64,000 bases of DNA. It comes from Candidatus Babeliales bacterium (GTDB lineage: Bacteria > Babelota > Babeliae > Babelales > JANWKD01). A program made the position numbers and the translations under genes. The notes under the pieces are model-generated. The model made no database searches, was not told where the DNA came from, and saw only the letters and a list, made by a program, of their open reading frames with translations. The stretch is from assembly GCA_963722255.1 (NCBI GenBank), contig CAVRJO010000002.1, positions 448,001 through 512,000 of the forward strand. The letters run 5' to 3'. Below, one piece after another: positions 3,319-32,384 of this stretch; the stretch's first letter is position 1; the number at the start of each line of letters is the position of its first letter.

Positions 3319-4123
3319 TTAGTACTTACGTTTTAATACCTCAGCAATATCTTCTTTTGTCATAGGAAGAATCTTAATGATTTTTCCATAAGTATCTCCT
3401 AATAGATCGTCATAGCTCACTGTTTTATATGCAGTCTGCTTCATCTTTTCATCAAAATAGGGTTCTACTCGCCAATCTGTTATAGGATGCAAAGCACCTT
3501 TTTCTTTCGTACGAAATAGTAGCCCATGGAATCGACCATGATCTAGCAGGCGGTTTTGTTCCAGGTCTATTATCAATAAAATCAAAATAATCGTCGTTAA
3601 ATGTTAAATTAAGAACCATCGCTCTTATTTCTGGACCCTTTTCCAAATTATCATACTCATAGGTTTGTGTTAAAAATTTTTCAAATTTATCAACATCAAA
3701 AATTAATTTTACTCCTGACTTACCATCAGCTTTACATAAATAAAAAACAATCTGATTAGAGTCCCTTCGTACAATCAACCCTTTGTTCTCGCGAGAATCC
3801 GTTATCAAATAGGGATTGGCGAACATAAAATCAATAGCAATTGGCTTATTGGCTTTGTAGACTTGCATAAATAAACTTGGAGGGCCATAACATTCTTGTT
3901 GAGAGATTGAGTCATTTCCAAATGCACCCTTAAAATAAATCCATTCACCACAACGTATTTCCGTTATTGTGATATCTCCTATCGAATAATTGCCTGAGAC
4001 ATAGTCTCCTTGCGTCAAATTTTTCTTGAACCTATGAGGATCTTGAAAGGGAAATTTAGCTCTTTTTGCACTTAAGGACATAGAAAAAGCTGCTATAATA
4101 ATAAAAAAAATTACTTTCTTCAT
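3319..4123 (-). CDS. Secreted hypothetical protein, frameshifted near 3580
   Basis: Signal peptide MKKVIFFIIIAAFSMSLSA; overlapping ORFs 3452-4123 and 3319-3585. Confidence 0.6.
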
Positions 4124-4225
4124 ACTTTGATCCTCTTAAAAAATCAATTAAAAAAAATTTATTTACTAACAGTATTATTATAGCAAAGTGTCGCACAAAC
4201 GAGCAATAAATTTAAATATAAATTT

Positions 4226-7150
4226 TTAAAATGCGTGGCCGAGCGTTAAAAACCACGAATACCATGATTCTTCTGGAACATGTTTCTTCCATTTCCATCC
4301 TAAATCAAACCGAACAGGTCCAATTGGGGTATAATAACGAATACCAAAACCTGTTCCGGCTAAAAAATGGCTCTTAACAACTTCAGTAATCGAACGATCG
4401 GCCAAAAACCCAATATCTTGAAAAAGAACTCCTCCTATACTCCAAAATAGGGGAAATCTTAACTCAAAGTTCATATTAAACAGAGATTTACCTCCTTGTG
4501 GCACGAGAATATTCTTGCCCTTGTGCTTGAAACTACCCAGTGGAGGGCCAAAGTCTTGATCATAGCTTCTTAAAGAGTTTTGTCCGCCAATAAAAAACGT
4601 AAAGGCGGCATAATATTAGGAAAATCCTGATTAAAAATATGCCCTGCTCTAAAACGCATAGGCCACAACAGATGATATCCATGAAACAGGGAAAAAAACG
4701 GATTGCTCAAAAAGAAACTTAAAAAAAGTTGTGCTTATTCTTCTGAGTGGAACCATGATCTGGCAAGAAGCAACCGTTAACGTTCCATAGGTTGGATTTA
4801 CATCATTATCTAAAAAATTAATTACCAAATCCGGTTCGGTGTAAATATAAGGTACTTGTTTATCGACTAAAACCGTTTCAAAATTAATCGCACGAGCCAT
4901 TTCAAGAGAGAATTTATTGGTTTCCATTACTTCAACACCTATATTTACTCCAAAGTTGACCATTGAACAGCATCTATTTACACCAAATAAAAAACCCTGT
5001 TGAATTGCTTGATACAAAGGTTTATCACTTCCAATATGAACAGGTTGCGTATATTTATTACTGTATCCTTTAATAACCGTATTTAAAGGCATTGAAAAAA
5101 ACCAAGGACGTTGATATTCAACCGAAATATTTCTATAAAATCGAGTAAAATCCGTATCAATACAAAAATAGTCGCCCGCATTAAACGGATTTTTATAGAG
5201 TCCTGTTCCTCCGAATTTATAGGTCGTTCCTTTTCTGAATTCTAATAAGGTTTTACTTACTTGCTGAAATCCTGCTCTTAAACGTATTTCAAAAGGTTCA
5301 TCTTGTAATAGTTTAATAATAATTGCTTTTTGCTCCTCTTGTTGAGCAATATCATACGGTGACAAGTAAATAGTTTCAAAGATTCCTAACTTGCGTAGCC
5401 GCTTTAATGAATCTTCCATTTTTTGCTTTTGCCACACATCACCTTCCTTGAAAGAAAGCTCGCGAACTATATTATTAAAAGGAAAGCTCGTTGATCCGAG
5501 CAGAATAATCTTTCCAAATTTTACAACCTTATCAATTCCTGCAATTTTCCAAATAACAGCAACATCAGAACCGTTATGGGTAATGTCCGGTTTGACATCA
5601 ACGTATAAAAATCCTTTTTTTTGAAAATAATCCATAAGCCATTGTCTCTGAACTTGGATCTGATTAGGATCAAATGGAACTGCTTCCTTACGTAGGCAAC
5701 TATTAAAAGGCGCCATTTTTTCAAGTTCAGGGAAATTCTCAATAATTACTGATTTGAGAAAACGACGTGAACCTTCAATAAGATTAATATATACCTCATA
5801 AATGGCCGGATCCTCTATTTTTTTATAGTCTTGATTGACTATCTTGACGTCTAAAAAACCATGACTTACATAAAAATTGGCCAATTTTTGTAATGATTGA
5901 CGCAAATAGTCTTCATCAAAAGGTTGTTTGAGAAACGATGAAAAAAAAGATTGAAGAATCTTATGGGTAAAACTTTCAGCACCTTGTATGATAACTTTTT
6001 TTATACTACTGCGTGATCCTTCCTTTATTAAAAAATAGTTTCGATGATCTTCTTGCTTAGTAGTAACTTCAACTTCCCAAAAACCTTTTTTTTGATAAGC
6101 ATCGATAATTTCTTGTATTAAAAATGAATCGGGTAATAACGCAGTTGATCGTCCAAAGGCAAAAATAATATCAAACAGTTGCTCATTTGAAAAAAAGTGA
6201 TTCCCAAAAAAAGTTATCATCTTTTTCTGGTTGAGCGTAATAGTAAACTCTAATGCAACAGTTTCTTGGTCAAGCTGCAGCTGTTTATTAACCGTAATTC
6301 GAGCATTTAAAAAACCCTTTTTTGCAAAATATTGCTTCAAAAATTTTTTTTGTTGCGTAACCAGTTCCTGTGTATAGCATTGACCATCCAATCGAGGCAC
6401 AAAAAGATCTCTAACTTTTTTCTGAAACCTTTCAGAAATTTGATCTCCCTCCGTTGATGCTAAAAAGTTCAATTGAACATCGGAAATTATAAATTCATAA
6501 CCGGAATCAATTACTAATGTTACAATGATCGTTTTAGTTTTATTATCATAGTTTAAATAATCAACCACACGCCCTTTAAAAAATCCATCGGCTTTGAGAG
6601 CATCATTAATTTTTTCTAAAGAATGTTCATGTTTTTCTCTGTCAAATTGCTCTCCAAACTCTAATACATAAAGATTTCGATATTTCTCTGCTCCACGCAA
6701 TAATCCTTGCACAATAACCTTCTTAAAGGTCCAAATACTTTCAAGCTTTATGGTTAATTCATTTTCCCCTTTACACCTATGTAGATGTAATTCTGCACGA
6801 GAAAACTTATTTTTCATTTTAATATGCAGGCAAGCCTCTACCAATTGTTGTTGCGTAACAAGATCTCCTTGAGTAAAACCAAGCAGATAGTTTTGCTCAT
6901 GAATTTCCATAGAGACATCTGTTTCAAAACGTAGAGTATCTACCTTAAATGATTCCGGAAATAGTGAAAGAAGCTCTCTTATCTTGGAACGATCGGCTGA
7001 AAAATCAACCGTTACGCTATTGACCAGATCATGAGCTTCATAACAAGATTTTTCTTGATCAGCTTGTATTGCTCTTAGCGAGACTAAGAAAAAAAATAGA
7101 ATAGAAAAGTGCTTTAACCTTTGAATCACTGTTACCCTAATGCTCTTCAA
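4226..7150 (-). CDS. Omp85 (BamA/TamA-family) outer-membrane protein with POTRA domains; two indels near 4600-4660
   Basis: POTRA-like repeats, GG..SLRSY motif, C-terminal GFGIRYYTPIGPVRFDLG...LGHAF. Confidence 0.85.
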
Positions 7151-7394
7151 ATAATGAGAACATCAGTTTAGCATAAGAGCAAAAAAATTTATAAAATGTT
7201 TTCCTGCAGTACGTCGCTGACAAACAACACAAATTCGACAATAATAAATCGTGTAATTGAGCTTATAACTATTGAAAATATACACTTAACAACACAAACA
7301 CTATTTGAATATATATATTTTTTTGCTCTGCTCAAAAGGGTTTTAATAAATTGTAAGAAAAGTTCTTGTTATATAAAATGGGAAAAATATTTTA

Positions 7395-12330: not shown

Positions 12331-12594
12331 TTATAATTCAGCAGAAGAATCCATTAATCTATTCGGTAATTTTTGAAAATCAGTTATCATGCCCTGATCT
12401 TGATAATAGTTCATAAGATGCACGAAATATGATTCAAGCTGCGGTGGAACAAAGAATTCAAATAAACATGTTTCTTTGTTCAAGGATCTATCAAAACATA
12501 AATGTTCAAAGCTACGTAATGTTGCTGTCAAAAAACCCGTATCAGGTTTAGAAACCTTTGCTTGATAATAAAGGCAATAAAAATTTTGTTGCAT
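12331..12594 (-). CDS. Small hypothetical protein (DUF4911-like)
   Basis: Start taken at MQQNF; FLTATLRSFEHLCFDRSL...FFVP resembles small ferredoxin-fold proteins. Confidence 0.5.
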   Translation of the reverse strand: MQQNFYCLYYQAKVSKPDTGFLTATLRSFEHLCFDRSLNKETCLFEFFVPPQLESYFVHLMNYYQDQGMITDFQKLPNRLMDSSAEL

Positions 12595-12692
12595 ACATAA
12601 AACCAAATAAAGAAATTGTAAAATAAATCTAACTGTAAACGAAAAATGTTTAAAACAAAAATTTTTTTTAATAAGAAAAATAACCAATGAAT

Positions 12693-12944
12693 GTCATCAC
12701 GAGGAGCTGTCCGGCCGACGCTTATCCAGGCCTTCCGGCTTGGCAAGCTGTGGCGGATCCGCTATTTGCGCTTGTCCGCCGAAGTTTTAACGAAGGCGGA
12801 ACGTGGTGACCCAGTAATTAAAATGAAAAGTCTTTATAACTGGGCCCTCTTACGCCAAGGCTTCAAAGGGCAGGTTGCTACGCCCTGTCCGTCGGAGCTT
12901 ACCAAGCCGGAAGGCCTGGATAAGCATAGTCGGATCGCAATGAC
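12693..12944 (+). repeat. Composite REP/RPE-like palindrome with four nested inserts
   Basis: GTCATCACGAGG...GTGGTGACCCAGT...ACTGGG...TCGCAATGAC backbone shared with 50195-50374 and 52503-52602. Confidence 0.9.
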
Positions 12945-13009
12945 AATTGTGGAATTATTTGCCTAAGCTGTGATTTTATATTTTTATTATCATCGAATTC
13001 GCGTTATTT

Positions 13010-13648
13010 CTAGTTTACACTATGTAACCAATCTTTAATAGCCTCATGTCTCTTTTTTAATGAATCTTCTTTCTGCTTACGCCATGCACTAGTTTTTTCA
13101 TTAGTTATATAGCCCCAGCCGGCAGCTCCAGCACATGCTACAGTAGTAATACCCACTTTTACATACCCATCTATCTCAGAGAAAATTTCATGGGGGACCC
13201 ACGGAGCACAAGCAAGCAATAAAAACCCAATGGTTAAAGCGCCAAATTTTTTAACAGCACCAAATTTTTCTTGCTCGAGCTTATCAAAAGCTGCTATTTC
13301 TTCTATAGCTTCATTAAGCAATAGTTGTTTGTCTACTCTGTATTCATCAAGATTTTGTTTCGATTCATACAATTCAAAATTATCGTATAGTTCTTTATAG
13401 TCGAGTTTTTTTTTATCTTGTGGGGGCTGAATAGCTAATTTCTGAACATACGGAATAGTTTGTTGAGGCTGTTCAGTGGACTTTTGAATCGACGTTTGAG
13501 ATGTTTTCTTTTGTTGTTGCACATTTTCCGGCTGTTTACGCAAACGCATATCGCTCATTAGCTCAATTAAATCTTCCTCTATGTCTTGATTTGCATATAT
13601 AAAACCCTGAAATAGTAACAATCCAAATATGAGTGTTGTATAGTTCAT
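13010..13648 (-). CDS. Secreted hypothetical protein, Q-rich, with C-terminal TM hairpin
   Basis: Signal peptide, polyQ-like linker, two hydrophobic segments. Confidence 0.7.
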   Translation of the reverse strand: MNYTTLIFGLLLFQGFIYANQDIEEDLIELMSDMRLRKQPENVQQQKKTSQTSIQKSTEQPQQTIPYVQKLAIQPPQDKKKLDYKELYDNFELYESKQNLDEYRVDKQLLLNEAIEEIAAFDKLEQEKFGAVKKFGALTIGFLLLACAPWVPHEIFSEIDGYVKVGITTVACAGAAGWGYITNEKTSAWRKQKEDSLKKRHEAIKDWLHSVN

Positions 13649-13766
13649 ATAAAATCTCCCAATACTATTTTTTAAAGTAACCTACAGCAATCTTGTACAA
13701 AAGTATGTCATTTGTATATCCTAAAGCAATCATATGTTACAACCTCTTTTAAAAAGTTAAAAAAAT

Positions 13767-14936
13767 ATGGACAACGAAAATAATCAAAAAATAGGCTTAG
13801 CAACTGCAACAATTGTTGGAATGAATGCAATGATTGGCGCAGGAATTTTTAGTGTTCCCGCCGCCTTAGGCTCATTTGTTGGCCCTGCTGGAATTATAAC
13901 CTATCTTTTTGTAATTATTGCTGTTTGGTTTATGGGATCTTCAATGGCTCGTTTAGCCCAACTTTATCCTGAAGAAGGATCATTTTATACGTATGCATCG
14001 CAATGGGGCGGCCATTATGTGGGATTGCTTTCGGCGGGAGCGTATCTCATTGGCTTGATTATAGCAATGGGGCTTTTGACTCAAATGGCAGGTCAAAATC
14101 TCCATGAAGCATTCCCACAACTCAATGCATATTCTTGGGGACTTATTGTTCTTATAGCACTTATTATTTTTAATCTTGTTGGTGTTACTTTATCAAAAAT
14201 TGGGCAAATGGTTCTTATATGCTGCACCGTATTTCCTATACTTATGACTATAATAATTGGTTTTATGCATGGCAGTGTCAATAATCTTACCCCATTTTTA
14301 CCGTATGGATTTACACATATTTTTACAGCAACTAACGCTGTTATTTTTGGTTTTTTTGGATTTGAATGCGCTGCATCTCTCTTTAGTGTTGTTGAAAATC
14401 CACGAGAAAATGTACCAAAAGCTTTACGTTATTCAATTATCTTAGTGGGTCTTCTTTATTTAGGCTTTGTTGGTTCAATAATATACGCAGTACCTCATTC
14501 ATATTTTACCGATCCAACAATTTCGCTCAGATCAATACTTTCAATTATAGTGCCAAATCATCCATGGCTTCTACATCTCATTCATTTTTCAGTTCTTTCA
14601 GCAATATTAGGAACAGTACATTCTATGATTTGGGGATCAAGTAGTTTACTTGTATCATATTGTAAAAAATTCAAATCTCCTTTGAACATAAGCACACGTA
14701 TGGCTGTATGCATTATAGGAATATGCATTTTTATGACATTCTCTCTTTTAAAAAATATGAATGTTTTTTTTAGCTTAACATCGATCTTCCTTATTTTCGC
14801 TTTTGTTTCTTCAATGATAAGTCTTTTACTGCTTCCTAATGAATGGAAAACAGGACAAAACATTAAAACTATTTTAGGTTTATTGACTGCATTTTTGATT
14901 TTTTATTTTGCTATAACCGGCCTTTTACTTTCTTGA
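13767..14936 (+). CDS. APC-family amino-acid permease
   Basis: GMNAMIGAGIF, GSFYTY, FGFFGFE motifs; multiple TM segments. Confidence 0.9.
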   Translation: MDNENNQKIGLATATIVGMNAMIGAGIFSVPAALGSFVGPAGIITYLFVIIAVWFMGSSMARLAQLYPEEGSFYTYASQWGGHYVGLLSAGAYLIGLIIAMGLLTQMAGQNLHEAFPQLNAYSWGLIVLIALIIFNLVGVTLSKIGQMVLICCTVFPILMTIIIGFMHGSVNNLTPFLPYGFTHIFTATNAVIFGFFGFECAASLFSVVENPRENVPKALRYSIILVGLLYLGFVGSIIYAVPHSYFTDPTISLRSILSIIVPNHPWLLHLIHFSVLSAILGTVHSMIWGSSSLLVSYCKKFKSPLNISTRMAVCIIGICIFMTFSLLKNMNVFFSLTSIFLIFAFVSSMISLLLLPNEWKTGQNIKTILGLLTAFLIFYFAITGLLLS

Positions 14937-21333: not shown

Positions 21334-22338
21334 ATGATAAAAAACTATTTTTTTGCATTATTACTTTCTCTTTCAGCATGCTGCAAAGGCATGGAACATA
21401 ATACCGGACAACTCCATCAGAAACTTCCTCGCATTAAAGATCATTTTTCAGATCTTTTCCCTCAACTTCCATCATTAAACTCTGAGGCCCCGGACATTTT
21501 ACCGCAAGGTGCATACCAATTGCTTTCCTTGGCTTACCGCAATAGCCTAGAACAGAATACTGATAGCATGGAAGAGGACACTGAACAACCCGATCAAACA
21601 GTTCCTTCCCTTAGAGAACTCTTTCCAGATCTTTTCACAATTGGAGAAGAATATCCTCAACATCCACCATTAAATTCTGAAACACAAGACATTTTAGCGC
21701 ACAGAACATACCTAGCTCCTTATGTTGAAGCATCATATAATTATTCCTTAGAAGAGACACCTAATTATCAAGTACAGACACCTCAAGTAAATGAAATCCC
21801 CAGTCCTAAAGAGCAGTTAACTATTATTCAATATAATACTCCACAATCACCGCAAAAATTTTACTGCGCACTTGGATGTGGAGTATTTTCATTGTGGAGA
21901 ACAAGTATAAAAACTCATGAACTTGCCCATACCGATGGAAAAAGAGTTCATACTTGCGATGCACCCAACTGCCATGCAACTTTTACTAATAAAGCTCAGC
22001 TTTCTACACATAAAAGAATGCACAATCCTACAGTGCTCTGCAGGGTCCAAGGCTGCAATAGAGCATTTGCACGAACTGATAATAGAGCAAGACACGAAGC
22101 AAGGCACCTTCAAAAAAAATCCTTCAAATGCGAAAGATGCGGAGCAGGATTTATAGAAAAAAGTGACTACAATAGACATAATGAACAACTTCATGAAAAA
22201 AACCACTTTCAATGCATTAAATGCTGTAAAAAACTATTTAATTCTTTTGGTAGACTACAACAACATTACAATAAGAAGGTCCGTAAAGGCGTACTAGAAA
22301 AATGTGCCGGCAAAATAATTGTTGCAGAAAACGTATAG
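21334..22338 (+). CDS. Secreted C2H2 zinc-finger protein (about 5 fingers)
   Basis: Signal peptide; P/Q/acidic region; fingers such as CRVQGCNRAFARTDNRARHEARH. Confidence 0.9.
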   Translation: MIKNYFFALLLSLSACCKGMEHNTGQLHQKLPRIKDHFSDLFPQLPSLNSEAPDILPQGAYQLLSLAYRNSLEQNTDSMEEDTEQPDQTVPSLRELFPDLFTIGEEYPQHPPLNSETQDILAHRTYLAPYVEASYNYSLEETPNYQVQTPQVNEIPSPKEQLTIIQYNTPQSPQKFYCALGCGVFSLWRTSIKTHELAHTDGKRVHTCDAPNCHATFTNKAQLSTHKRMHNPTVLCRVQGCNRAFARTDNRARHEARHLQKKSFKCERCGAGFIEKSDYNRHNEQLHEKNHFQCIKCCKKLFNSFGRLQQHYNKKVRKGVLEKCAGKIIVAENV

Positions 22339-22613: not shown

Positions 22614-23630
22614 ATGAAAAACTATTTTTTTGCATTATTATTTTTCTTTGCTTGCTGCAAGAGCATGGAACATACTACCGGAAGACTTCCTTCCATTAGA
22701 GAGCAGTTTCCAGAACTTTCCTTTCAACTTCCACCATTAAATTCTGAGACATCAGACATTTTAGCGCACAGTTCACCCCAATTGCTTTCCTTGGCATGCT
22801 ATAATAGAATGGAACAGACCACTGATAGCATGGAAGAGGACACTGAACAACCCGATCAAATACTTCCTTCCATTAGAAAACAGCTTTCAGGTTTTTTCAC
22901 TCAAACTCCACCATTAAATCCTGAACCACAAGACATTTTAGCGCACCGAACATACCTAGCTCCTTATGTTGAAGCATCATATAATTATTCCTTAGAAGAG
23001 ACACCTAATTATCAAGTACAGACACCTCAAGTAAATGAAATCCCCAGCCCTACTGAAGAGCAGTTAACTATTATTCGATACATACCCTCTCCAAAATCAC
23101 CGAACACACTCGCTCCAAACATACCCACTCCAAAATCAGCACAACAATTTTACTGCGCACTCGGATGTGGAGTGTTTTCATTTTGGAGAAAAAGTATAAA
23201 ACTGCATGAACTCGCTCATATCGATGAAAAAAGAATTCGTATTTGCGATGAACCAAATTGCCATGCTGCTTTTAGTGATAATAGTGCACTTACTAGACAT
23301 AAAAATATGCACAGGCCTACACTGCGCTGCCGATTTCAAGGCTGCAATAGAACATTTGCACGAAAGGATAATAGAATAAACCATGAAGAAACACACAAAA
23401 AAAGATCCCTTCAAAAAAGTCTCTTCAAATGTTTAAGATGCAGGGCAAAATTTACAATAGAAGGTGACTACAATAGGCATAATAAACAACGTCATAAAGA
23501 AAATGGCTTTCAATGCATTAGATGCTGTAAAAAACTATTTCATTCTAAAGGTAAATTATGTCAACATTACAATAAAAAGATCCGTAAAGGCATACTAAAA
23601 AAATGTGACGGCAAAATAATTGTTGCATAA
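22614..23630 (+). CDS. Secreted C2H2 zinc-finger protein (about 5 fingers), paralog of 21334-22338
   Basis: Long identical DNA blocks with the 21334 gene; C2H2 repeats. Confidence 0.9.
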   Translation: MKNYFFALLFFFACCKSMEHTTGRLPSIREQFPELSFQLPPLNSETSDILAHSSPQLLSLACYNRMEQTTDSMEEDTEQPDQILPSIRKQLSGFFTQTPPLNPEPQDILAHRTYLAPYVEASYNYSLEETPNYQVQTPQVNEIPSPTEEQLTIIRYIPSPKSPNTLAPNIPTPKSAQQFYCALGCGVFSFWRKSIKLHELAHIDEKRIRICDEPNCHAAFSDNSALTRHKNMHRPTLRCRFQGCNRTFARKDNRINHEETHKKRSLQKSLFKCLRCRAKFTIEGDYNRHNKQRHKENGFQCIRCCKKLFHSKGKLCQHYNKKIRKGILKKCDGKIIVA

Positions 23631-23659: not shown

Positions 23660-24142
23660 TTATGCCAAATCATCAACAACGACTTTTATATCATTGTGAT
23701 GATTCACCGTTAATAGATCTGCAGTACCATCTCCATCAATATCTCCGGCTGCTGCAATAATAAATCCTTCTTTATCGGCTTTAGTTGTCCCTAATGCAGA
23801 TTGCGGCGCTGACAATTTGCCAGTAAAATAGTTTTGTCCTTCTTGGCCTTGATTAAATCCATAGGTGTAATTAAATTTTTCTTGCGCTCCACCACCAGAA
23901 TATCCTTCCGGCTTCCAGCCAATACCATCTTTACCAAGAAGCACAGATGAAAAAGTTCCATTTTCAGCCCAATAAGTCTTTTGTGCAACATATAATGAGC
24001 CTAAATTCATGTAAGCCTCGGCTCGTTTAGCCTTTGAAAGAAATTTTAAGAAACTTGGAACAGAAATCATTGATAAAAAACCTATAATAGCTACCACTAT
24101 CATAAGCTCAATCATAGTAAAACCCTGAATATTTCGCTTCAT
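23660..24142 (-). CDS. Type IV pilin (PilA-like)
   Basis: G|FTMIELMIVVAIIGFL class III signal; C-terminal DIDGDG. Confidence 0.9.
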   Translation of the reverse strand: MKRNIQGFTMIELMIVVAIIGFLSMISVPSFLKFLSKAKRAEAYMNLGSLYVAQKTYWAENGTFSSVLLGKDGIGWKPEGYSGGGAQEKFNYTYGFNQGQEGQNYFTGKLSAPQSALGTTKADKEGFIIAAAGDIDGDGTADLLTVNHHNDIKVVVDDLA

Positions 24143-24634
24143 TGACCCTACCCTAACCCTATAAAGCTTTATTGATATCATGATAGTGTAATGAGGATGC
24201 CTAAAGTCAATAATTTTGAAAAAAATAGATTTTCCCAGGAAAAAGCTTTACTAAAAAGATTAGTGATTTCAAAAGTCATATTCCTATTCATTAAAATGGT
24301 TTTTGACCAACCACTAGAAATATTTTCTATTTGAAACAATCAAAAGCTTTAAACCATCACACATAAAGCTATTTATACCTGTAAAACAGCCGCTTATCAT
24401 TTTTAATCTTTTGTAAATACTAGGCAGGTTTTTTCATATATAATTCAATGTTTGACATTTTTAAAAAATATTATACTATTAAATAGAAGATAGGACCCCA
24501 TCAAAGGCAAACTAAACAAGTTCTATATAATTTAAGTATTCGCTTTCATATTATTACTGCTTACCGGCTAATTAATATCAATCAGCAATAATAAATGAAG
24601 AGGTTTTTTAAATACATTCTATTTTGGAGAAAAA

Positions 24635-26107
24635 ATGGCAACCATAAACAAGCAAGATATAGTAACTAAAACAGCTGCGGCTTTAGGTAAACAAAGAAAT
24701 TATAATGAGGTCGTTGAATTTCTGGACTCTAACTGGGTTCATGAACAACCGACTGAAAAAAGCTTTGCACTTATTACTAAGCTTGACCAAGCTTTAAAAA
24801 GCCCTTCAAAAAGTTTAAACGCTATTTTGATTGGCGGAACTAATGGGAAAGGACTTACCATCCATTTTGCCACAAAACTTTTTCAAGAAGAAAAGATTAG
24901 CTCAGGAGCATTTTATTCACCGCACATTTTGAGCTACAATGAACGTTTTACCATCAACAATGAAACTATTTCAAATAAGACGTTTACCGAGTTGGCAAAT
25001 GATGTTATTAACACCGCTGAAGCACATGGTATTCCTGCAACATCATTTGATATTTTAACCATGATGTCCGTTCTTTATTTCACCTCAAACAACGTTGATG
25101 TTGCTTTGCTTGAAATGAAGAATGATAGTCCTTTTGATCCTACCAATATTTGTAAACCAAATATTTTAGCAATTACTCGTATAACTAACGAAAATATAGC
25201 ACCTAAAAATGATAAAACAGCTGAATATATCAAATATATTCTTCAAGGTGTAAAACCTGGAACCCATGTTATTTCAGGCGATCAAAGCAAATTAAATCTT
25301 CAATTGATGGCTGATCAAGTTGAACTTCACAAGGGTATATGGGAAATGCCAATACGTAAACTTGCACCATTAGCATATCCTTTTGAACAACTTCATGGTC
25401 GCTGCGCTGCACTTGCTGAACGCATTTGCCAAATTTATGTTGACGATTTCCTAAAAGATAGCACCTTGGTTTCTAGCGCAAGCCTTCTTGCAAAACCTAA
25501 AGGGCAACGTGGACGTCCAACCTTACAACGTAAAAAAGAATCATTAGAGAATCCTCAAAGAACACTTGAACAATTCTGGAAAGAAGAATCAAGCACGTTG
25601 GCTGGCCGTTTCCAAGTTTTAGATAAAGAAAAACCAACAATCTTACTTGATAATGCAAGTAATGTTGATGCGTTGAAAAATCTTTTACTAGGTATTAGAT
25701 TAATGCATTATCAAAAACCTTTAAAAGGCTTAGCATTTATCTTTGCTTGTGATAAAAACCAAATAAATGTTGAAGAATTTTTACGACTTCTTAGATACTT
25801 CTCTAAGAAAAATTCAGGACAAATTATTTTCTGCCCTATTGAAAGTAATGTTCCCGGCGTTCAAGAAGAATCATGGGATGTTGAACAAATTATCAACAAT
25901 GTACAAAGACTTGGTGATGCATCAGGATCAGGCAAAGCAACAACTATTGCATTGAAGGTCAAGGCTAAACTTGCTAAGAATTTCGAAGAAGCATACGAAA
26001 TGGCTAAAAAGTCAATTAATGATGAGCGCCATGGATTAATGGTTATTTCCGGTTCTCAATCAATTATTAGCCAATACTGGAAATTTAAAGGCATTAAAAA
26101 AATCTAA
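24635..26107 (+). CDS. Divergent FolC-like (Mur-ligase fold) protein
   Basis: GGTNGKG, FYSPHILSYNERFTIN, LAGRFQ, LLDNASN; canonical EVGLGGRLDATN replaced. Confidence 0.7.
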   Translation: MATINKQDIVTKTAAALGKQRNYNEVVEFLDSNWVHEQPTEKSFALITKLDQALKSPSKSLNAILIGGTNGKGLTIHFATKLFQEEKISSGAFYSPHILSYNERFTINNETISNKTFTELANDVINTAEAHGIPATSFDILTMMSVLYFTSNNVDVALLEMKNDSPFDPTNICKPNILAITRITNENIAPKNDKTAEYIKYILQGVKPGTHVISGDQSKLNLQLMADQVELHKGIWEMPIRKLAPLAYPFEQLHGRCAALAERICQIYVDDFLKDSTLVSSASLLAKPKGQRGRPTLQRKKESLENPQRTLEQFWKEESSTLAGRFQVLDKEKPTILLDNASNVDALKNLLLGIRLMHYQKPLKGLAFIFACDKNQINVEEFLRLLRYFSKKNSGQIIFCPIESNVPGVQEESWDVEQIINNVQRLGDASGSGKATTIALKVKAKLAKNFEEAYEMAKKSINDERHGLMVISGSQSIISQYWKFKGIKKI

Positions 26108-26110
26108 TCT

Positions 26111-26386
26111 ATGATAACATCCATCATTGTTGGTTCACTCTTAGGAATTATATATGGGCTTTCTTTCTTTGTCACAAAGAAGAAAGCCCTTTCTTCTTAT
26201 TCTTCACAGGCGACAGTTCTTCGTGTCGCAGCATTTTCATCTTTTCGTCTTCTTTTTATTTCGTTAATATTTTATTATCTATTGCTACAACATAATCTTA
26301 ATTATATACTGGTTTTGGTATCATTTTTAATTACCTTATGGATCACTGTTATAACTAAGAGCGATATGCGTTTATGGAAGGCTTAG
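26111..26386 (+). CDS. ATP synthase protein I-like membrane protein
   Basis: Small TM protein with SSFRLL, immediately upstream of atpB. Confidence 0.55.
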   Translation: MITSIIVGSLLGIIYGLSFFVTKKKALSSYSSQATVLRVAAFSSFRLLFISLIFYYLLLQHNLNYILVLVSFLITLWITVITKSDMRLWKA

Positions 26387-27117
26387 AAGTTTTTAATGTC
26401 GAACATGTATGGCATCCACTTAAATTGCTTGGCATTGATTCATCTATAATCAGTATCACCATCCCAACTGTCATTAATACGTGGATTGTTTTATTCGTTT
26501 TAACGGGATTTATTCTACTTTTTCGATTACTACTTTATAAAAGTAATGTTGTGACTTTTCTTGTACATTCGTTTGTCGATTCATTTATAGAGCTTTCAGT
26601 TCAATCTTTAGGTAGCTTTAACTACACCCATTTTGCTTTCGTTTTTTCTATTTTTGTGTTTATTCTTTTGTGTAATTGGATTGCTCTCATCCCTTTTGTT
26701 GAAGAACCAACAAAGGATATCAATACAACGCTTGCACTGGGATGCATATCGTTTTTTTATAAAGAATTTTATGCGATAAAAACACATGGCTTTCTTGCCT
26801 ATATTAAAGAATTTTTTCATCCTTTTTTTGTAATGTTTCCACTCAATCTCATAAGCCATTTTTCAAAAATCATTTCAATATCATTTCGCCTTTTTGGAAA
26901 TATCTTTGGTGGTTCAATCATTACTCAAATCTATACGAGTGCAATTTCACTCTCGTTCTTAACTGAACTCTTTGGCTTATTATCAGGAATAAATTTTTTA
27001 GTACTTTCTTTTTTTATCCTTTTTGAAGGCTTAATTCAAGCGTTTGTTTTTACTATGTTAACGCTAACCTATCTTGCTATTGCAGTACAAACTGAGGAAG
27101 AAGAGGCACCCATATAA
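26374..27117 (+). CDS. atpB: F0 ATP synthase subunit a
   Basis: PTKDINTTLAL, SFRLFGNIFGG, IQAFVFTML. Confidence 0.93.
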   Translation: MEGLEVFNVEHVWHPLKLLGIDSSIISITIPTVINTWIVLFVLTGFILLFRLLLYKSNVVTFLVHSFVDSFIELSVQSLGSFNYTHFAFVFSIFVFILLCNWIALIPFVEEPTKDINTTLALGCISFFYKEFYAIKTHGFLAYIKEFFHPFFVMFPLNLISHFSKIISISFRLFGNIFGGSIITQIYTSAISLSFLTELFGLLSGINFLVLSFFILFEGLIQAFVFTMLTLTYLAIAVQTEEEEAPI

Positions 27118-28082
27118 TGGAACATATAAGTTCATTTCTTCATTATGGAACAATCTTGTTTATTATTGGTACTACTTCTCTTGGCACCGGTATTGGTGGC
27201 GGCAAAGCAACCATGAAAGCTCTCGATGCACTTAATTGCTCGCCAACATCTTTTCCTGAAATTTTTAGAGCTCTCATCATAGGCCTTGCTCTTATTGAAA
27301 CAAGTGCAATTTTGGGTATCGTTATGGGACTCATTCTTATTCTCGGGCAACCCCTGCAGGACAACGGAAATCTCTTTATTACGCTGGGTGAAATAGGCAT
27401 TGCATTCGCTTTAGGAATATCAGGAGGACTCGTTGGACTTCTTTCAGCATTACCTGTGCAAGAAGCCGTCTATGCTATTGCTCGGCAACCATTTTTTAGT
27501 AACAAAATTTTAAATACAATGCTTTTAACGCAATCAATTGTTCAAACACCGGTAATTTTTAGTTTTTTAATTGCCTTATTTATTAAAGGACAAATAGGCG
27601 CCGTAACTACCTACGCAAATAGTATACGTTTAGTAGCAAGCGGATTATGCATTGGCATTGGAAGCATAGGGCCAACTATTGGCTTAGCTCGTTTTGCACA
27701 AATTGCTAATAGATGTATAGCATTCAATCGAGAAGCCTATTCAACGCTCATGCCATTCATTTTTGTCAGTCAAGCAATTATCGAAACACCTATAATTTTT
27801 GCTGTGCTTGTTACGATTATTTTATTATTTACGCCAATAAAACCTGATAATGAAACATTAGGGGCGCTATCATGTATTGCGGCAGCATTCTGCGCTGCTC
27901 TTGGTACCTTAGGACCCGGTATTAGTTCCGGCAAAATTGCATCTGCTGCATGCAAGGAAATTGCTTTAAATCATGAAAACAGTTCTATCATTTCTCGAAC
28001 AAGCATTTTGGGACAAGGCATTATCGATGCTGCAGCCATGTATGCTTTACTTGTTGCATTGATTATTATAATTTTGAGGTAA
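27117..28082 (+). CDS. atpE: F0 ATP synthase subunit c made of four fused hairpin repeats
   Basis: Four Gly-rich helix/loop/helix units; ARQP loop in repeat 2; ion-site residues LIET, IVQT, IIET, IIDA. Confidence 0.85.
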   Translation: MEHISSFLHYGTILFIIGTTSLGTGIGGGKATMKALDALNCSPTSFPEIFRALIIGLALIETSAILGIVMGLILILGQPLQDNGNLFITLGEIGIAFALGISGGLVGLLSALPVQEAVYAIARQPFFSNKILNTMLLTQSIVQTPVIFSFLIALFIKGQIGAVTTYANSIRLVASGLCIGIGSIGPTIGLARFAQIANRCIAFNREAYSTLMPFIFVSQAIIETPIIFAVLVTIILLFTPIKPDNETLGALSCIAAAFCAALGTLGPGISSGKIASAACKEIALNHENSSIISRTSILGQGIIDAAAMYALLVALIIIILR

Positions 28083-28166
28083 CATGATTTTACCTTCATA
28101 AATCAATACTGATTCATCGAATTCACGTTAATAAAATTAAAAAATAAAAACGGAGAATGAAGCTTT

Positions 28167-29317
28167 ATGAATACTCATGATACTCATGACTTGCATATAG
28201 TATATATTATTACAAAATTGGAGCTTGGGGGTGCACAAAAAGTTTGTTTATCTCTTTTTGAAGGCCTCAAACAATCTGGATACTCCTCAATGCTCATTTC
28301 AGGCACACAAGGACCTCTAGCAGAAGAAGTAAAACACAATCCTTTTGTCTATCTTTTACCCACGCTAACACGAGAAATTTCTTTTATTAGCATTTACAAC
28401 GAAATAAAAACCTTTTTGCACCTTATACACTATCTAAAAGAACTCAAAAAAAAATATCCGCAGCTTATTGTTCACACTCATAGCACAAAGGCAGGAGTTG
28501 TTGGCCGCTGGGCTGCTTTTTTTCAGGAATTAAACAACGTGTTCATACCATTCATGGCTATGCTTTTCACGCGCATCAATCATATTGCGTGTGGTTAATG
28601 ATCTATTTTCTTGAATTGATTACAAGCTTCATAACAACACGTTTTGTTTGCGTCTCATCAGCAGATGTACAAACCGGCATACGATTGTTCCCATTTTTCA
28701 AAAATAAATATTCTATTATTCGTGCTGCTGTTGATTGGGACCAGTTTACAACAATAACTTTTCCTCCTAAGCAAACCCCACAAGATCTCTTTATTATAGG
28801 AACCATTGCCTGCTTTAAAAAACAAAAAAATCTCACTGATCTTATTAAATCATTTCATAGCGCATATCGCGCTAATAAAAATCTGCGATTAGAAATAATA
28901 GGCGATGGAATAATGCGAAATGAAATTGAACAACTCATTAATTTGTATGAAATTCAAGATGTCGTTATACTCCATGGTTGGCAAAAAAATGTCGTTCCTT
29001 TTATGCAATCATGGCATGCCTTTGCCTTAACTTCATTATGGGAAGGACTGCCATGCGCAATAATCGAAGCACGGCTTTTAAAACTTCCAATTCTTGCTTA
29101 TGATACGGGCGGCATTCATGATGTTATAATTAACAAAAAAAATGGCTTTCTTTATGCTCAAAAAGATTGGAGAAGTTTAGCAGAAGGAATGTTAGAGTTA
29201 AGCATCAATAAAGAGCTTTATAATAACATGCGAAATTATAATGAAAATCTACTCGATTATCATGCAACAACGATGATTAATAATCATATTGCATTATATA
29301 AAGAATTAGCTAATTGA
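28167..29317 (+). CDS. GT4-family glycosyltransferase, frameshifted in a T run near 28520
   Basis: GGAQK, VHTHSTKAG, hidden HTIHG, SLWEGLPCAIIEA. Confidence 0.85.
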
Positions 29318-30525: not shown

Positions 30526-31509
30526 ATGAAACATAGTAAAGGGAGAGAAACAATGAAACATTTAAAAATAATAGCACTACTGCTCATTGTAATAAGTCAG
30601 ACGTTTATGCTGCAATCAGCATATCGAAGAGCTGGAGCAACGGGAGCACGAGGCTACTTTTCAAGAACAGGTGGTGCAGCAAGATCATTAACAACCGAAA
30701 CTGGCGCGATATCAAGAACACCAATAACGTGCCCAAACGTCGGTTCCCGATCATTTATGAGCGGACGTTTTCCGGAAACACCCTTAAGAGTTAGAGCTTA
30801 TAAATTTGGAAAACAAGCTGGTGAACAGGCTCGTGAATTTGCCGGGAAACATCGTGGAAAATTGTGGGTTGCTGGTACAGCCGGTGCTGGATATGGGGCT
30901 GGAAAGGCAATACAAAAACATCAAGAAAATGCCGCTCGAGCTCAAATCTATTTAGGTAGTTTTGAAGACTTGATAAATTCATATAATAAAGAAAGAGATG
31001 AAGCGGAAATGATTGAGCTTATTAAAGACTTACAGGAAGTGGGCGGAATCAATACAGGAAATGAGCCCTGGGGACATACGCTTCTTAGAATGGTAATTGA
31101 GGCTAATAGGTTAACAGAAGCTGATAGAGAGGCGATTCTTACATTGGCTATTGAACATGGCGCTCGACCAAAAGAAGTTGAACTTAAAAAAGCATTAGGT
31201 TTAACAGAATATGAGTCTATACCATATGAACGAAGTGGACTTTATAAATTAAACCCTAAGAATAACGTCTTGAAGATTATTTTACCACTTTATGATCAAA
31301 AAACATCGTTGAAGATTATTGACTTGGCTAAAGCTAGAATCAGTAATATTAAGCATGATGTAAGATATCAATCAGAAGAATCGAAAAAAAGAGCACTATC
31401 TACTATAGAAACCTTTAGAGAACTAAAAAATATTGCAGAAGAAAATCTTAATAAACGTAGATTACGCAGCTTAGCAACAACAGGAAAAGAGGAAGCTGAA
31501 TTAAAATAA
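30526..31509 (+). CDS. Secreted protein: R/G/S-rich N-region, G/A-rich hydrophobic segment, ankyrin-like repeat
   Basis: GHTLLRMVI...LAIEHGA; alternative start at 30553. Confidence 0.75.
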   Translation: MKHSKGRETMKHLKIIALLLIVISQTFMLQSAYRRAGATGARGYFSRTGGAARSLTTETGAISRTPITCPNVGSRSFMSGRFPETPLRVRAYKFGKQAGEQAREFAGKHRGKLWVAGTAGAGYGAGKAIQKHQENAARAQIYLGSFEDLINSYNKERDEAEMIELIKDLQEVGGINTGNEPWGHTLLRMVIEANRLTEADREAILTLAIEHGARPKEVELKKALGLTEYESIPYERSGLYKLNPKNNVLKIILPLYDQKTSLKIIDLAKARISNIKHDVRYQSEESKKRALSTIETFRELKNIAEENLNKRRLRSLATTGKEEAELK

Positions 31510-31574: not shown

Positions 31575-32384
31575 ATGAAACATAGTAAAGGGAGAGAAAC
31601 AATGAAACATTTAAAAATAATAGCACTACTGCTCATAGTAATGAGTCAGACGTTTATGCTGCAATCAGCATATCGAAGAGCTGGCGCAACCGCAACGCGT
31701 GGCTACTTTTCAAGAACAAGCGGTGCAGCAAGATCATTAACAACCGAAACTGGCGCGATATCAAGAACACCAGTAAGTTGCCCTAATGTAGGTCGAGCAT
31801 TCGGTCCATCTTCATTTGGTAGCAAAGCGCGTACATTAGGAACTCAAGCTCGTGAATTTGCGGGCAGACATCGTGGAAAACTATGGGCTACTGGAGCTGC
31901 AGCAGGTGCTGCCGGAGCTGTCGCTGCAGGCTATGGCATTAGAAAAGGAATTTCTGAAAAAGAAATGGAAGATAATGTATTGAAACTGATTTCCACGACC
32001 GATTTATCCGATTCTGAAAAAGTAGATATGCTTAAGACTTACATACCACATTTCTCTTCATTTAATGAAGAAACTTTACGAGAGTTGAAACGTTTAGCAC
32101 AGGTAAATATTAATTCTCTAACCAATGACTTAAACTATTTGGAATCAAGGGCACTAGGAAATTTTAGAGCATACCTGCTTTTAACTGAGTACACTGATGA
32201 TCCAAACTATGAAGAATCAATTAATAATAAACTAAACGAAAAAAAAGAATCAATTGAAGCTGATAAAAAACGTATAAAAGCACAACTATCTTCATGGAGA
32301 GAATTAAAAAATAGTGTTAATGAAAATCTTAAGATAAAATTATATCCAAATTTATATTCAAAAAAAGAGTTTCAATTAAAATAA
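31575..32384 (+). CDS. Paralog of the 30526 gene with a different coiled-coil C-terminus
   Basis: Upstream region and first ~70 codons nearly identical to the 30526 gene. Confidence 0.75.
   Translation: MKHSKGRETMKHLKIIALLLIVMSQTFMLQSAYRRAGATATRGYFSRTSGAARSLTTETGAISRTPVSCPNVGRAFGPSSFGSKARTLGTQAREFAGRHRGKLWATGAAAGAAGAVAAGYGIRKGISEKEMEDNVLKLISTTDLSDSEKVDMLKTYIPHFSSFNEETLRELKRLAQVNINSLTNDLNYLESRALGNFRAYLLLTEYTDDPNYEESINNKLNEKKESIEADKKRIKAQLSSWRELKNSVNENLKIKLYPNLYSKKEFQLK

Follow-up and report, generated by a model that had tools for sequence, protein, structure and literature searches.

A fused four-hairpin F-type subunit c kept beside a normal subunit c in a Candidatus Babeliales genome and across the Dependentiae

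Background

The number of ion sites in a c-ring sets the ion/ATP ratio of the enzyme to which it belongs and, with it, the size of the gradient which a pump can build or which a synthase needs. This study concerns a gene for an F-type subunit c made of four fused hairpins, here named c4, and the F1Fo enzyme of which it would be a part. The gene lies in a stretch of 64,000 nucleotides (nt) from a Candidatus Babeliales bacterium (assembly GCA_963722255.1, contig CAVRJO010000002.1, positions 448,001 to 512,000; in our numbering G000:C2:448001-512000), referred to below as the window, and the genome amounts to 1.62 Mb in two contigs and is 93% complete. Unless a contig or locus is named, positions are those of the window.

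The closest described system is that of Acetobacterium woodii; no other F-type enzyme with a fused and partly silenced c was found to have been characterised by experiment. Its large subunit c1 (AtpE1, PDB 4BEM chain J) is an F-type protein with more than one hairpin per chain, encoded after atpB and accompanied by a normal one-hairpin c with a Na+ signature. The first of its two hairpins reads AETS and the second AQTT, with Gln for the carboxylate, and one site is therefore kept. The Gln-site hairpin reportedly carries no ion. Co-assembly of the large and the normal subunit has been demonstrated for this organism, the available part of PMC9171764 describing a rotor of nine one-hairpin c and one V-type c, as well as production of the A. 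woodii enzyme in Escherichia coli, where an atp-deleted strain has also served for the enzyme of P. modestum.

Fused hairpins with fewer ion sites are also found among the V/A-type proteolipids, such as NtpK of Enterococcus hirae (2BL2), the c, c' and c'' subunits of the eukaryotic V-ATPase and archaeal c subunits (PMC9171764 and PMC2359735, in the excerpts available). Archaeal c subunits with 1, 2, 3 or 13 hairpins are mentioned in the former and fused forms with 2, 3 and 13 hairpins in the latter, and a four-hairpin form is absent from the hairpin numbers in the accessible text of both reviews. Within a literature search whose scope did not extend to surveys of hybrid-rotor distribution, nothing was found on a four-hairpin c, on subunit c of the Dependentiae or on F-type c with more than two hairpins; a term search of the accessible text of a preprint (10.64898/2026.10.01.756066) gave no mention of Dependentiae or Desulfo.

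Results

A four-hairpin F-type subunit c coupled to the only atpB

The c4 gene is the last of a compact unit of three genes on the forward strand. The unit and the four hairpins of c4 are listed below, together with the residues found in each ion-site column among 74 species-level c4 proteins, i.e. the present one and those of 73 loci; lengths are in amino acids (aa).

26111-26386, + strand: small membrane protein at the AtpI position, 91 aa, overlapping the start of atpB by 13 nt
26374-27117, + strand: atpB, Fo subunit a, 247 aa (PF00119, E 1.3e-37; TIGR01131, 106.6 bits against a cut-off of 102.6)
27117-28082, + strand: c4, four-hairpin fused F-type subunit c, 321 aa, ATG start, stop TAA at 28080-28082
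27117-27362, + strand: hairpin 1, aa 1-82, carboxylate E61 (column E in 71 and D in 3 of 74 species)
27363-27605, + strand: hairpin 2, aa 83-163, Gln143 in place of the carboxylate (column Q in 62, E in 11 and G in 1 of 74 species)
27606-27845, + strand: hairpin 3, aa 164-243, carboxylate E223 (column E in 72 and Q in 2 of 74 species)
27846-28079, + strand: hairpin 4, aa 244-321, carboxylate D304 (column D in 45, E in 28 and G in 1 of 74 species)

An earlier, sequence-only reading of the window had described a 321-aa open reading frame (ORF) after atpB with four c-like repeats and an E/Q/E/D site pattern, and this description was borne out. As that reading had expected of a domain check, PF00137 (ATP-synt_C) matched four stretches of c4 in the whole-protein Pfam search (E 5.3e-26, 91.1 bits against a cut-off of 24), covering each hairpin over its full length. 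Scored singly in a six-frame PF00137 search of the genome, the stretches reached 36.0, 29.0, 25.6 and 36.6 bits, all above the 24-bit cut-off. Furthermore, the F0F1 subunit C models of NCBIfam matched four stretches, with NF009998 at the top (129.7 bits against a cut-off of 116), whereas the V-type K models of the same collection reached 22 bits at best against a cut-off of 101, which leaves c4 outside V-type membership. The partners of c4 are likewise all F-type, subunit a being adjacent and an OSCP-type delta, alpha, gamma, beta and epsilon being encoded elsewhere in the genome. Judged by its profile match and its F-type partner genes, c4 is an F-type subunit c, and in this it differs from the V/A-type proteolipids. 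Since its four repeats are only 17-26% identical in pairwise comparison, c4 is read as an old fusion and not as a duplication produced by the assembly.

The carboxylate column was set by aligning the four repeats with the one-hairpin c of the same genome, which is described below. It falls on E61, Q143, E223 and D304, in the motifs LIETS, IVQTP, IIETP and IIDAA, which are encoded at the site by GAA (27297-27299), CAA (27543-27545), GAA (27783-27785) and GAT (28026-28028), respectively. Hairpins 1, 3 and 4 carry the carboxylate expected of an F-type c, and hairpin 2, with Q143, does not; its Glu-to-Gln replacement is the one seen in the second hairpin of A. woodii c1. The RQPF motif in the cytoplasmic loop of hairpin 2 is invariant, and Y309 of hairpin 4 is kept in 74/74 species. 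As compared with a canonical one-hairpin c, c4 consists of four units per chain, each with a conserved character of its own.

At the 5' end of c4 the stop codon of atpB (TAA, 27115-27117) shares one base with the start codon (ATG, 27117-27119), forming a TAATG junction. PF00119 matches once in the whole genome, atpB thus being unique, and its translation includes the FRLFGN motif with its Arg. On this arrangement, c4 is translationally coupled to the sole atpB of the genome. The 91-aa ORF at the head of the unit has no above-cut-off match in Pfam or NCBIfam, and its position suggests a putative AtpI role. A scan of 25900-28400 for promoters and terminators gave sites no more numerous than in shuffled sequence.

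A normal short c and the remainder of the F1Fo enzyme

When the six frames of the genome were searched with PF00137, five matches were obtained, four of which lie within c4. The fifth is an 81-aa protein, hereafter the short c.

G000:C1:443238-443480: short c, canonical one-hairpin form, 81 aa; strongest PF00137 match in the genome, 53.4 bits

The c genes of A. woodii share one operon, whereas here c4 and the short c are located on different contigs. The short c opens a cluster on contig C1 which continues with a 120-aa b-like gene, a 165-aa b-like gene, delta (OSCP match, E 7.5e-23) and alpha. The names b-like and b'-like were given from position and shape, and only the 120-aa gene has a weak NCBIfam subunit B match. 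The upstream region of the short c spans 133 nt, in which promoter-like TTGCAA and TACAAT elements and a ribosome-binding site, AAAGGAA, were recognised by eye. In the genome as a whole gamma and epsilon, like atpB, have single-copy matches, epsilon lying beside beta, and PF00006 matches the alpha gene, the beta gene and, more weakly, a third sequence. Because subunits a and gamma are single and the c genes are two, the set is read as one F1Fo enzyme encoded at four loci with two distinct c genes.

A separate observation concerns the end of this operon. The gene after alpha encodes a 509-aa protein of the PF09820 'AAA-ATPase_like' family (E 5e-56; positions 12433-13962 of locus L006, G000:C1:434000-453000). 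By eye, the same 19 kb contain two apparent copies of it further upstream, an intact one (5676-7235) and a split one (443-1559), the copy at 12433-13962 being the only one scanned against Pfam. With gamma, beta and epsilon at other loci, the repeated PF09820-type family therefore sits at the break point of the old operon.

Structural resemblance and complex prediction

The likeness to A. woodii c1 that had been recognised from the sequence of c4 was confirmed by comparison with solved structures. The best PDB match of c4 by sequence is c1 (4bem_J, E 4e-11), with c2 (4bem_A) matching too, and no chain among the PDB hits spans more than half of c4. The short c is matched best by c1 as well (4bem_J, E 2.8e-16), and then by c2 (4bem_A, E 1.5e-11) and 1yce_A (E 3.2e-10), the latter being the c of the Na+ c11 ring of Ilyobacter tartaricus, a canonical F-type c to whose type the short c belongs. 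An AlphaFold2 model of c4, built with 48 relatives, has eight long helices (predicted local distance difference test, pLDDT, 93.1; predicted template modelling score, pTM, 0.90). Its top fold match is again 4bem_J (E 8.8e-5, target template modelling (TM) score 0.78, root-mean-square deviation 1.7 Å, 158 columns), and V-type proteolipids come next, with target TM scores of 0.6-0.88.

When c4 and the short c were predicted as a complex, a score of 0.58 was obtained, the best of three controls reaching 0.00; this lends the pair weak support, to which we give little weight, and the pass may be a memory of 4BEM. Contact agreement between the runs was at least 98% and the pLDDT of the partner at least 80. 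The mark applied is reached by 116/157 solved complexes and by 2/215 mismatched pairs, and scores up to 0.60 at the mark are found for only 18 of the 157 solved complexes and for both passing mismatches, although the prediction used its own alignments and these calibration counts hold only roughly.

Conservation across the Dependentiae

In a word-indexed search with c4, 8000 candidates were scored and 473 of them reached E <= 1e-3. The best 120 of these 473 comprise 119 proteins of 315-323 aa and a fragment of 217 aa, and the named sources are Dependentiae or Babeliales. When 1.84 billion cluster representatives were searched exhaustively, 423 proteins reached E <= 1e-3 and 141 of them E <= 1e-30, the best 150 of the 423 being mostly colinear and 298-329 aa long. 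A survey of relatives, which the sequence-only reading had suggested, places c4 in 259/261 Dependentiae species genomes, including 189/189 of those of high quality. The short c was also matched in 259/261 genomes and in 189/189 high-quality ones, weak rows among which may be cross-matches to c4. Neither gene was matched in two genomes whose completeness is 64% and 70%.

Five genomes (G110, G113, G141, G145 and G202) gave weak short-c matches only, and a real loss of the short c in them was considered and rejected. PF00137 finds the four c4 repeats only, the extra weak hit in G110 being a 239-aa multi-pass membrane protein and not a c subunit. In G110 (95% complete) delta is found at bases 383-898 of its contig and, as this is the very start of the contig, the short c is cut off and not shown to be absent. 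Completeness in the other four ranges from 66 to 86%.

The gene order at both loci is conserved. In 73/73 Dependentiae loci atpB lies immediately 5' of c4, and a homologue of the AtpI-position ORF lies directly upstream of atpB in 44/73 (tblastn). The short c is followed on the same strand by delta, and by alpha too where the locus is long enough, in 30/30 loci, and at least one b-like gene was found between the short c and delta in 26/30. This conserved order argues that (AtpI-like, a, c4) and (c, b', b, delta, alpha) have long been separate units in the phylum; the shared operon of the A. woodii-type large c is not found in Dependentiae.

In a tree of single hairpins, the repeats of c4 (r1 to r4) and the short c form one clan each, with support in the Shimodaira-Hasegawa-like approximate likelihood ratio test (SH-aLRT) of 98 for r1, 99 for r2, 99 for r3, 87 for r4 and 97 for the short c, on 97 rows and 83 columns, which are few for that number of rows. 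As each hairpin forms its own clan, the fusion is older than the sampled radiation. Mean pairwise identity is 57.7% for the short c against 38-49% for the c4 hairpins, which makes the short c the most conserved piece.

These results bear on the possibility that c4 alone is the working ring, the short c being a spare, produced at low level or otherwise employed. Such a ring would consist of multiples of four hairpins, as the sequence-only reading had proposed, and would suit a c4 which adjoins and is coupled to atpB, which keeps three or four carboxylates and whose AlphaFold2 model is a confident four-hairpin arc. The short c, on the other hand, is present in nearly every one of these reduced genomes, has invariant ion-site residues (see below), heads the stator/F1 cluster at all 30 loci and surpasses every c4 hairpin in identity, a degree of conservation which is hard to square with dispensability. 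Moreover, a canonical short c is what had been named beforehand as speaking against a ring in multiples of four, and the proposal is not supported; we regard c4 as the sole ring component as quite improbable.

Ion sites across the phylum

The site patterns of the 74 c4 proteins, read from hairpin 1 to hairpin 4, are distributed as follows.

EQED: 41 species
EQEE: 17 species
EEEE: 9 species
DQED: 3 species
EEED, EQEG, EGQE and EEQE: 1 species each

E61 and E223 are invariant in alignment A1 of c4, and position 304 is D or E in 73/74 species. The carboxylate lost from hairpin 2, to which the sequence-only reading had drawn attention, is a feature of the present protein and of the majority of the phylum (Q143 in 62/74 species), but it does not belong to the conserved core, Glu being found there in the 11 species mentioned above and one clade being characterised by Glu at all four sites. 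The nine EEEE proteins make up this deep, long-branched clade with the EGQE and the EEQE protein, and its SH-aLRT is 100. On the unrooted tree of the 74 proteins, three changes suffice to account for the residue of hairpin 2. A separate short c was present in 5/5 genomes of the all-Glu clade. Judging from these patterns, the site loss is a later, lineage-specific layer over an older fusion.

The short c has Gln30 (in GQG), Glu63, Ser/Thr64 and Tyr68 in 30/30 sequences, with Q30, E63 and Y68 invariant in the 24-row alignment A2. These residues correspond to the Na+ ligand set in the available part of PMC2359735, and they follow the Na+ rule stated in the accessible text of 10.64898/2026.10.01.756066, i.e. 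Glu or Gln in helix 1 plus E[STQ][STQ]xxY. A one-hairpin c with a complete ion site, such as accompanies the large c of A. woodii, is present in the same genome as c4. These residues make Na+ the likelier coupling ion.

With its canonical form, its higher conservation and its best matches to ordinary F-type c, the short c might also be thought to make up the ring without c4, the latter being in that case an accessory or non-rotating membrane protein such as a scaffold for assembly or a partner of subunit a. In c4, however, the rotor residues E61, E223, D/E304 (73/74) and Y309 (74/74) and the RQPF loop are all kept, which would be unexpected in a scaffold, and the solved protein most closely related to c4 is part of a ring. 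An accessory c4 appears very improbable to us.

Multi-hairpin c subunits outside the Dependentiae

A pattern scan gave two loci outside the Dependentiae where a large c and a short c with the Na+ motif stand side by side in one operon, in the manner of A. woodii.

L108, GC-rich bacterium, 3968-5083: atpB, 250-aa three-hairpin c (S/Q/Q, no carboxylate), 85-aa c, b', b, delta, alpha
L109, Desulfobacterales metagenome-assembled genome, 1704-3444: atpB, 486-aa six-hairpin c (E/Q/Q/Q/Q/Q, one Glu), short c, b', b

A search with the six-hairpin c of L109 returned 1824 proteins at E <= 1e-5; the best 120 of these are mostly about 324, 405 or 486 aa long, and the sources named among them are Desulfobacterales, Desulfarculaceae, Desulfosalsimonas and Thermodesulfobacteriota. 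Three further multi-hairpin c subunits read E/Q/Q/Q, E/Q/Q/Q/Q and E/Q/Q/Q/E. Altogether, the outgroup proteins, which come from Desulfobacterota and other bacteria and are entered in databases as 'ATP synthase F0 subunit C', have 3, 4, 5 or 6 hairpins (250, 324, about 405 and 486 aa) and lie between atpB and a normal Na+-motif c; those read keep 0, 1 or 2 carboxylates and stay in one operon with the short c, whereas the c4 of Dependentiae keeps three or four and is separated from it. The last hairpin of each outgroup protein scored highest against the Dependentiae r4 profile, by a margin of at least 10 bits, and the middle hairpin of the L108 protein scored best against the r2 profile, by 19 bits, and groups with r2 at an SH-aLRT of 97. 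On these similarities, the c4 of Dependentiae belongs, as one branch, to a larger and apparently undescribed group of F-type c subunits which have several hairpins and accompany a normal c. We class c4 as a putative variant of the large c of A. woodii-type hybrid rotors, from which the lack of a shared operon sets it apart.

The outgroup operons are relevant to a further alternative, in which the two c genes would provide alternative rotors for the same stator and F1, a ring being made either of c4 only or of the short c only. Three copies of c4, for example, would form a ring with 12 hairpins and 9 carboxylates, and the cell would dispose of two gear ratios, e.g. for a free infectious and an intracellular stage. 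Such an arrangement would agree with c genes placed in distant, separate transcription units, one with a promoter-like region of its own (by eye) and the other coupled to atpB, and with the retention of both throughout the phylum. In the outgroups, however, the multi-hairpin c is set beside the short c, which fits co-assembly. In addition, the sole atpB sits with c4, and a short-c ring would still need the c4 locus to be transcribed. We know of no F-type enzyme with exchangeable rings, and we consider alternative rotors unlikely.

Other features of the window

Upstream of the three-gene unit, a 490-aa ORF on the + strand (24635-26107) ends 3 nt short of the AtpI-position ORF. A weak match to Mur_ligase_C (24.9 bits; cut-off 28.4) is its only one, and the ORF is possibly a divergent ligase of the FolC/Mur type. 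On the 3' side of c4, a glycosyltransferase gene (28167-29317, + strand) is broken into two overlapping ORFs in different frames, 28167-28598 with weak matches to GT4 N-terminal domains and 28589-29317 with a match to Glycos_transf_1 (E 1e-31); a frameshifted pseudogene or a sequencing error are both possible.

Two pairs of tandem paralogues are found on the + strand. The first pair, 21334-22338 and 22614-23630, encodes proteins of 334 and 338 aa with a hydrophobic N-terminus and a Cys/His-rich C-terminal half, whose weak matches to C2H2 zinc fingers (24.4 and 19.3 bits, cut-off 25.2) suggest that they may be eukaryote-like proteins of a parasite. In the second, 30526-31509 and 31575-32384, the first ~60 residues (MKHSKGRETMKHLKIIALLLIV...) are near-identical and the sequences then diverge; neither matches Pfam at E <= 0.01. 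On the - strand, 23660-24181 encodes a 173-aa type IV pilin-like protein in which the N-terminal methylation motif was recognised (PF07963, 31.1 bits), together with weak matches to FG-GAP.

Discussion

Taken as a whole, the evidence makes us lean, if only slightly, towards a hybrid ring of c4 and the short c within one F1Fo enzyme which is run as an ATP-driven, probably Na+, pump. The large subunit c4 would be the c1-like rotor component of the single F1Fo ATPase of the organism, with its four hairpins side by side forming an arc of the c-ring. Copies of the 81-aa short c would fill the remainder, giving a heteromeric rotor like that of A. woodii which would turn against the single a subunit. 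Hairpins 1, 3 and 4 would carry the ion on E61, E223 and D304, while the Gln143 hairpin would cross the a/c interface empty, and the ions moved per turn would be one fewer than the hairpins. The enzyme would work mostly backwards, as an ATP-driven pump making the membrane potential, with Na+ as the likelier ion. One c4 and seven c would give the same 11 hairpins and 10 sites as in A. woodii, a coincidence of arithmetic only, and a single Gln hairpin in a hybrid ring would shift the ion/ATP ratio only slightly.

We read c4 as an arc in a heteromeric ring because both c genes are kept in small genomes with one a and one F1, because the nearest solved system co-assembles such a pair and because the outgroups keep the pair in one operon. 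The sequence data establish c4 with its four domains and site residues, its conservation, a conserved short c at a separate locus and single copies of a and gamma. That the two c proteins assemble together, in what ratio they would do so, which way the enzyme works and with which ion are what we infer, whereas for A. woodii co-assembly is demonstrated.

Several observations weigh against this reading. The shared ring is argued from analogy, the hairpins resembling those of the solved complex, and from a weak prediction. Neither delta nor alpha was found within 4 kb of c4 in any of the 73 loci, nor atpB within 1.5-4 kb of the short c in any of the 30, and in the 32 genomes with both c genes on one contig the distance between them ranges from 23 kb to more than 1 Mb. 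Both b-like genes of the short-c cluster are without a Pfam match, and the first reaches 23.3 bits against a subunit B cut-off of 131. The silenced site itself is not universal, with Glu in hairpin 2 of 11/74 species. With regard to the ion, the Na+ motif of the short c can mislead: as far as the available part of PMC9430772 goes, the c of Sporomusa ovata has Q...ET/S and yet its ATPase is not stimulated by Na+. The sites of c4 also depart from the motif, since hairpin 1 of the present protein has Gly28 (Gln or Glu in 61/74 relatives), hairpins 2 and 3 have no Tyr at +5 (Thr-Pro..Phe after the site) and hairpin 4 has Asp as its site, though its Tyr is present.

The direction of work was considered in the light of the energy metabolism of the genome. 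Three genes for TLC nucleotide transporters (four matched stretches) and one for a membrane pyrophosphatase were found, whereas PF00361 (Proton_antipo_M), PF02508 (Rnf-Nqr), PF01654 (cytochrome bd) and PF00115 (COX1) had no match in this genome, at its completeness of 93%. Because TLC transporters are present and no respiratory chain was found, the membrane is probably energised by this enzyme through the hydrolysis of imported ATP. The available part of PMC4776705 similarly describes TM6 as lacking a tricarboxylic acid cycle and an electron transport chain, and as possibly hydrolysing ATP to keep a gradient. The energy-parasite setting envisaged by the sequence-only reading fits this gene content.

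A more far-reaching form of the argument is that the rotor is programmed by fusion. Here c4 would be a block of fixed size and asymmetric build which sets the number of hairpins, with one silent position per block, and which would either be swappable with a short-c rotor or fix an exact c4:c stoichiometry. We consider this proposal rather unlikely as it stands.

Conclusions

Throughout a phylum of intracellular bacteria which import ATP, a four-hairpin c is kept beside a normal c. The clade with all four sites separates two questions, namely why the hairpins were fused and why one site was silenced. Furthermore, the all-Glu proteins, those with one Gln and the outgroup forms with near-zero carboxylates make up a natural series in which the asymmetry of a rotor may be set against torque, ion slip and direction of work. 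Some Dependentiae grow in amoebae or protists. If the fusion-programmed rotor were true, then together with the forms of three to six hairpins it would mean that the tuning of the ion/ATP ratio by fused, partly silenced segments is far wider among F-type enzymes than A. woodii suggests.

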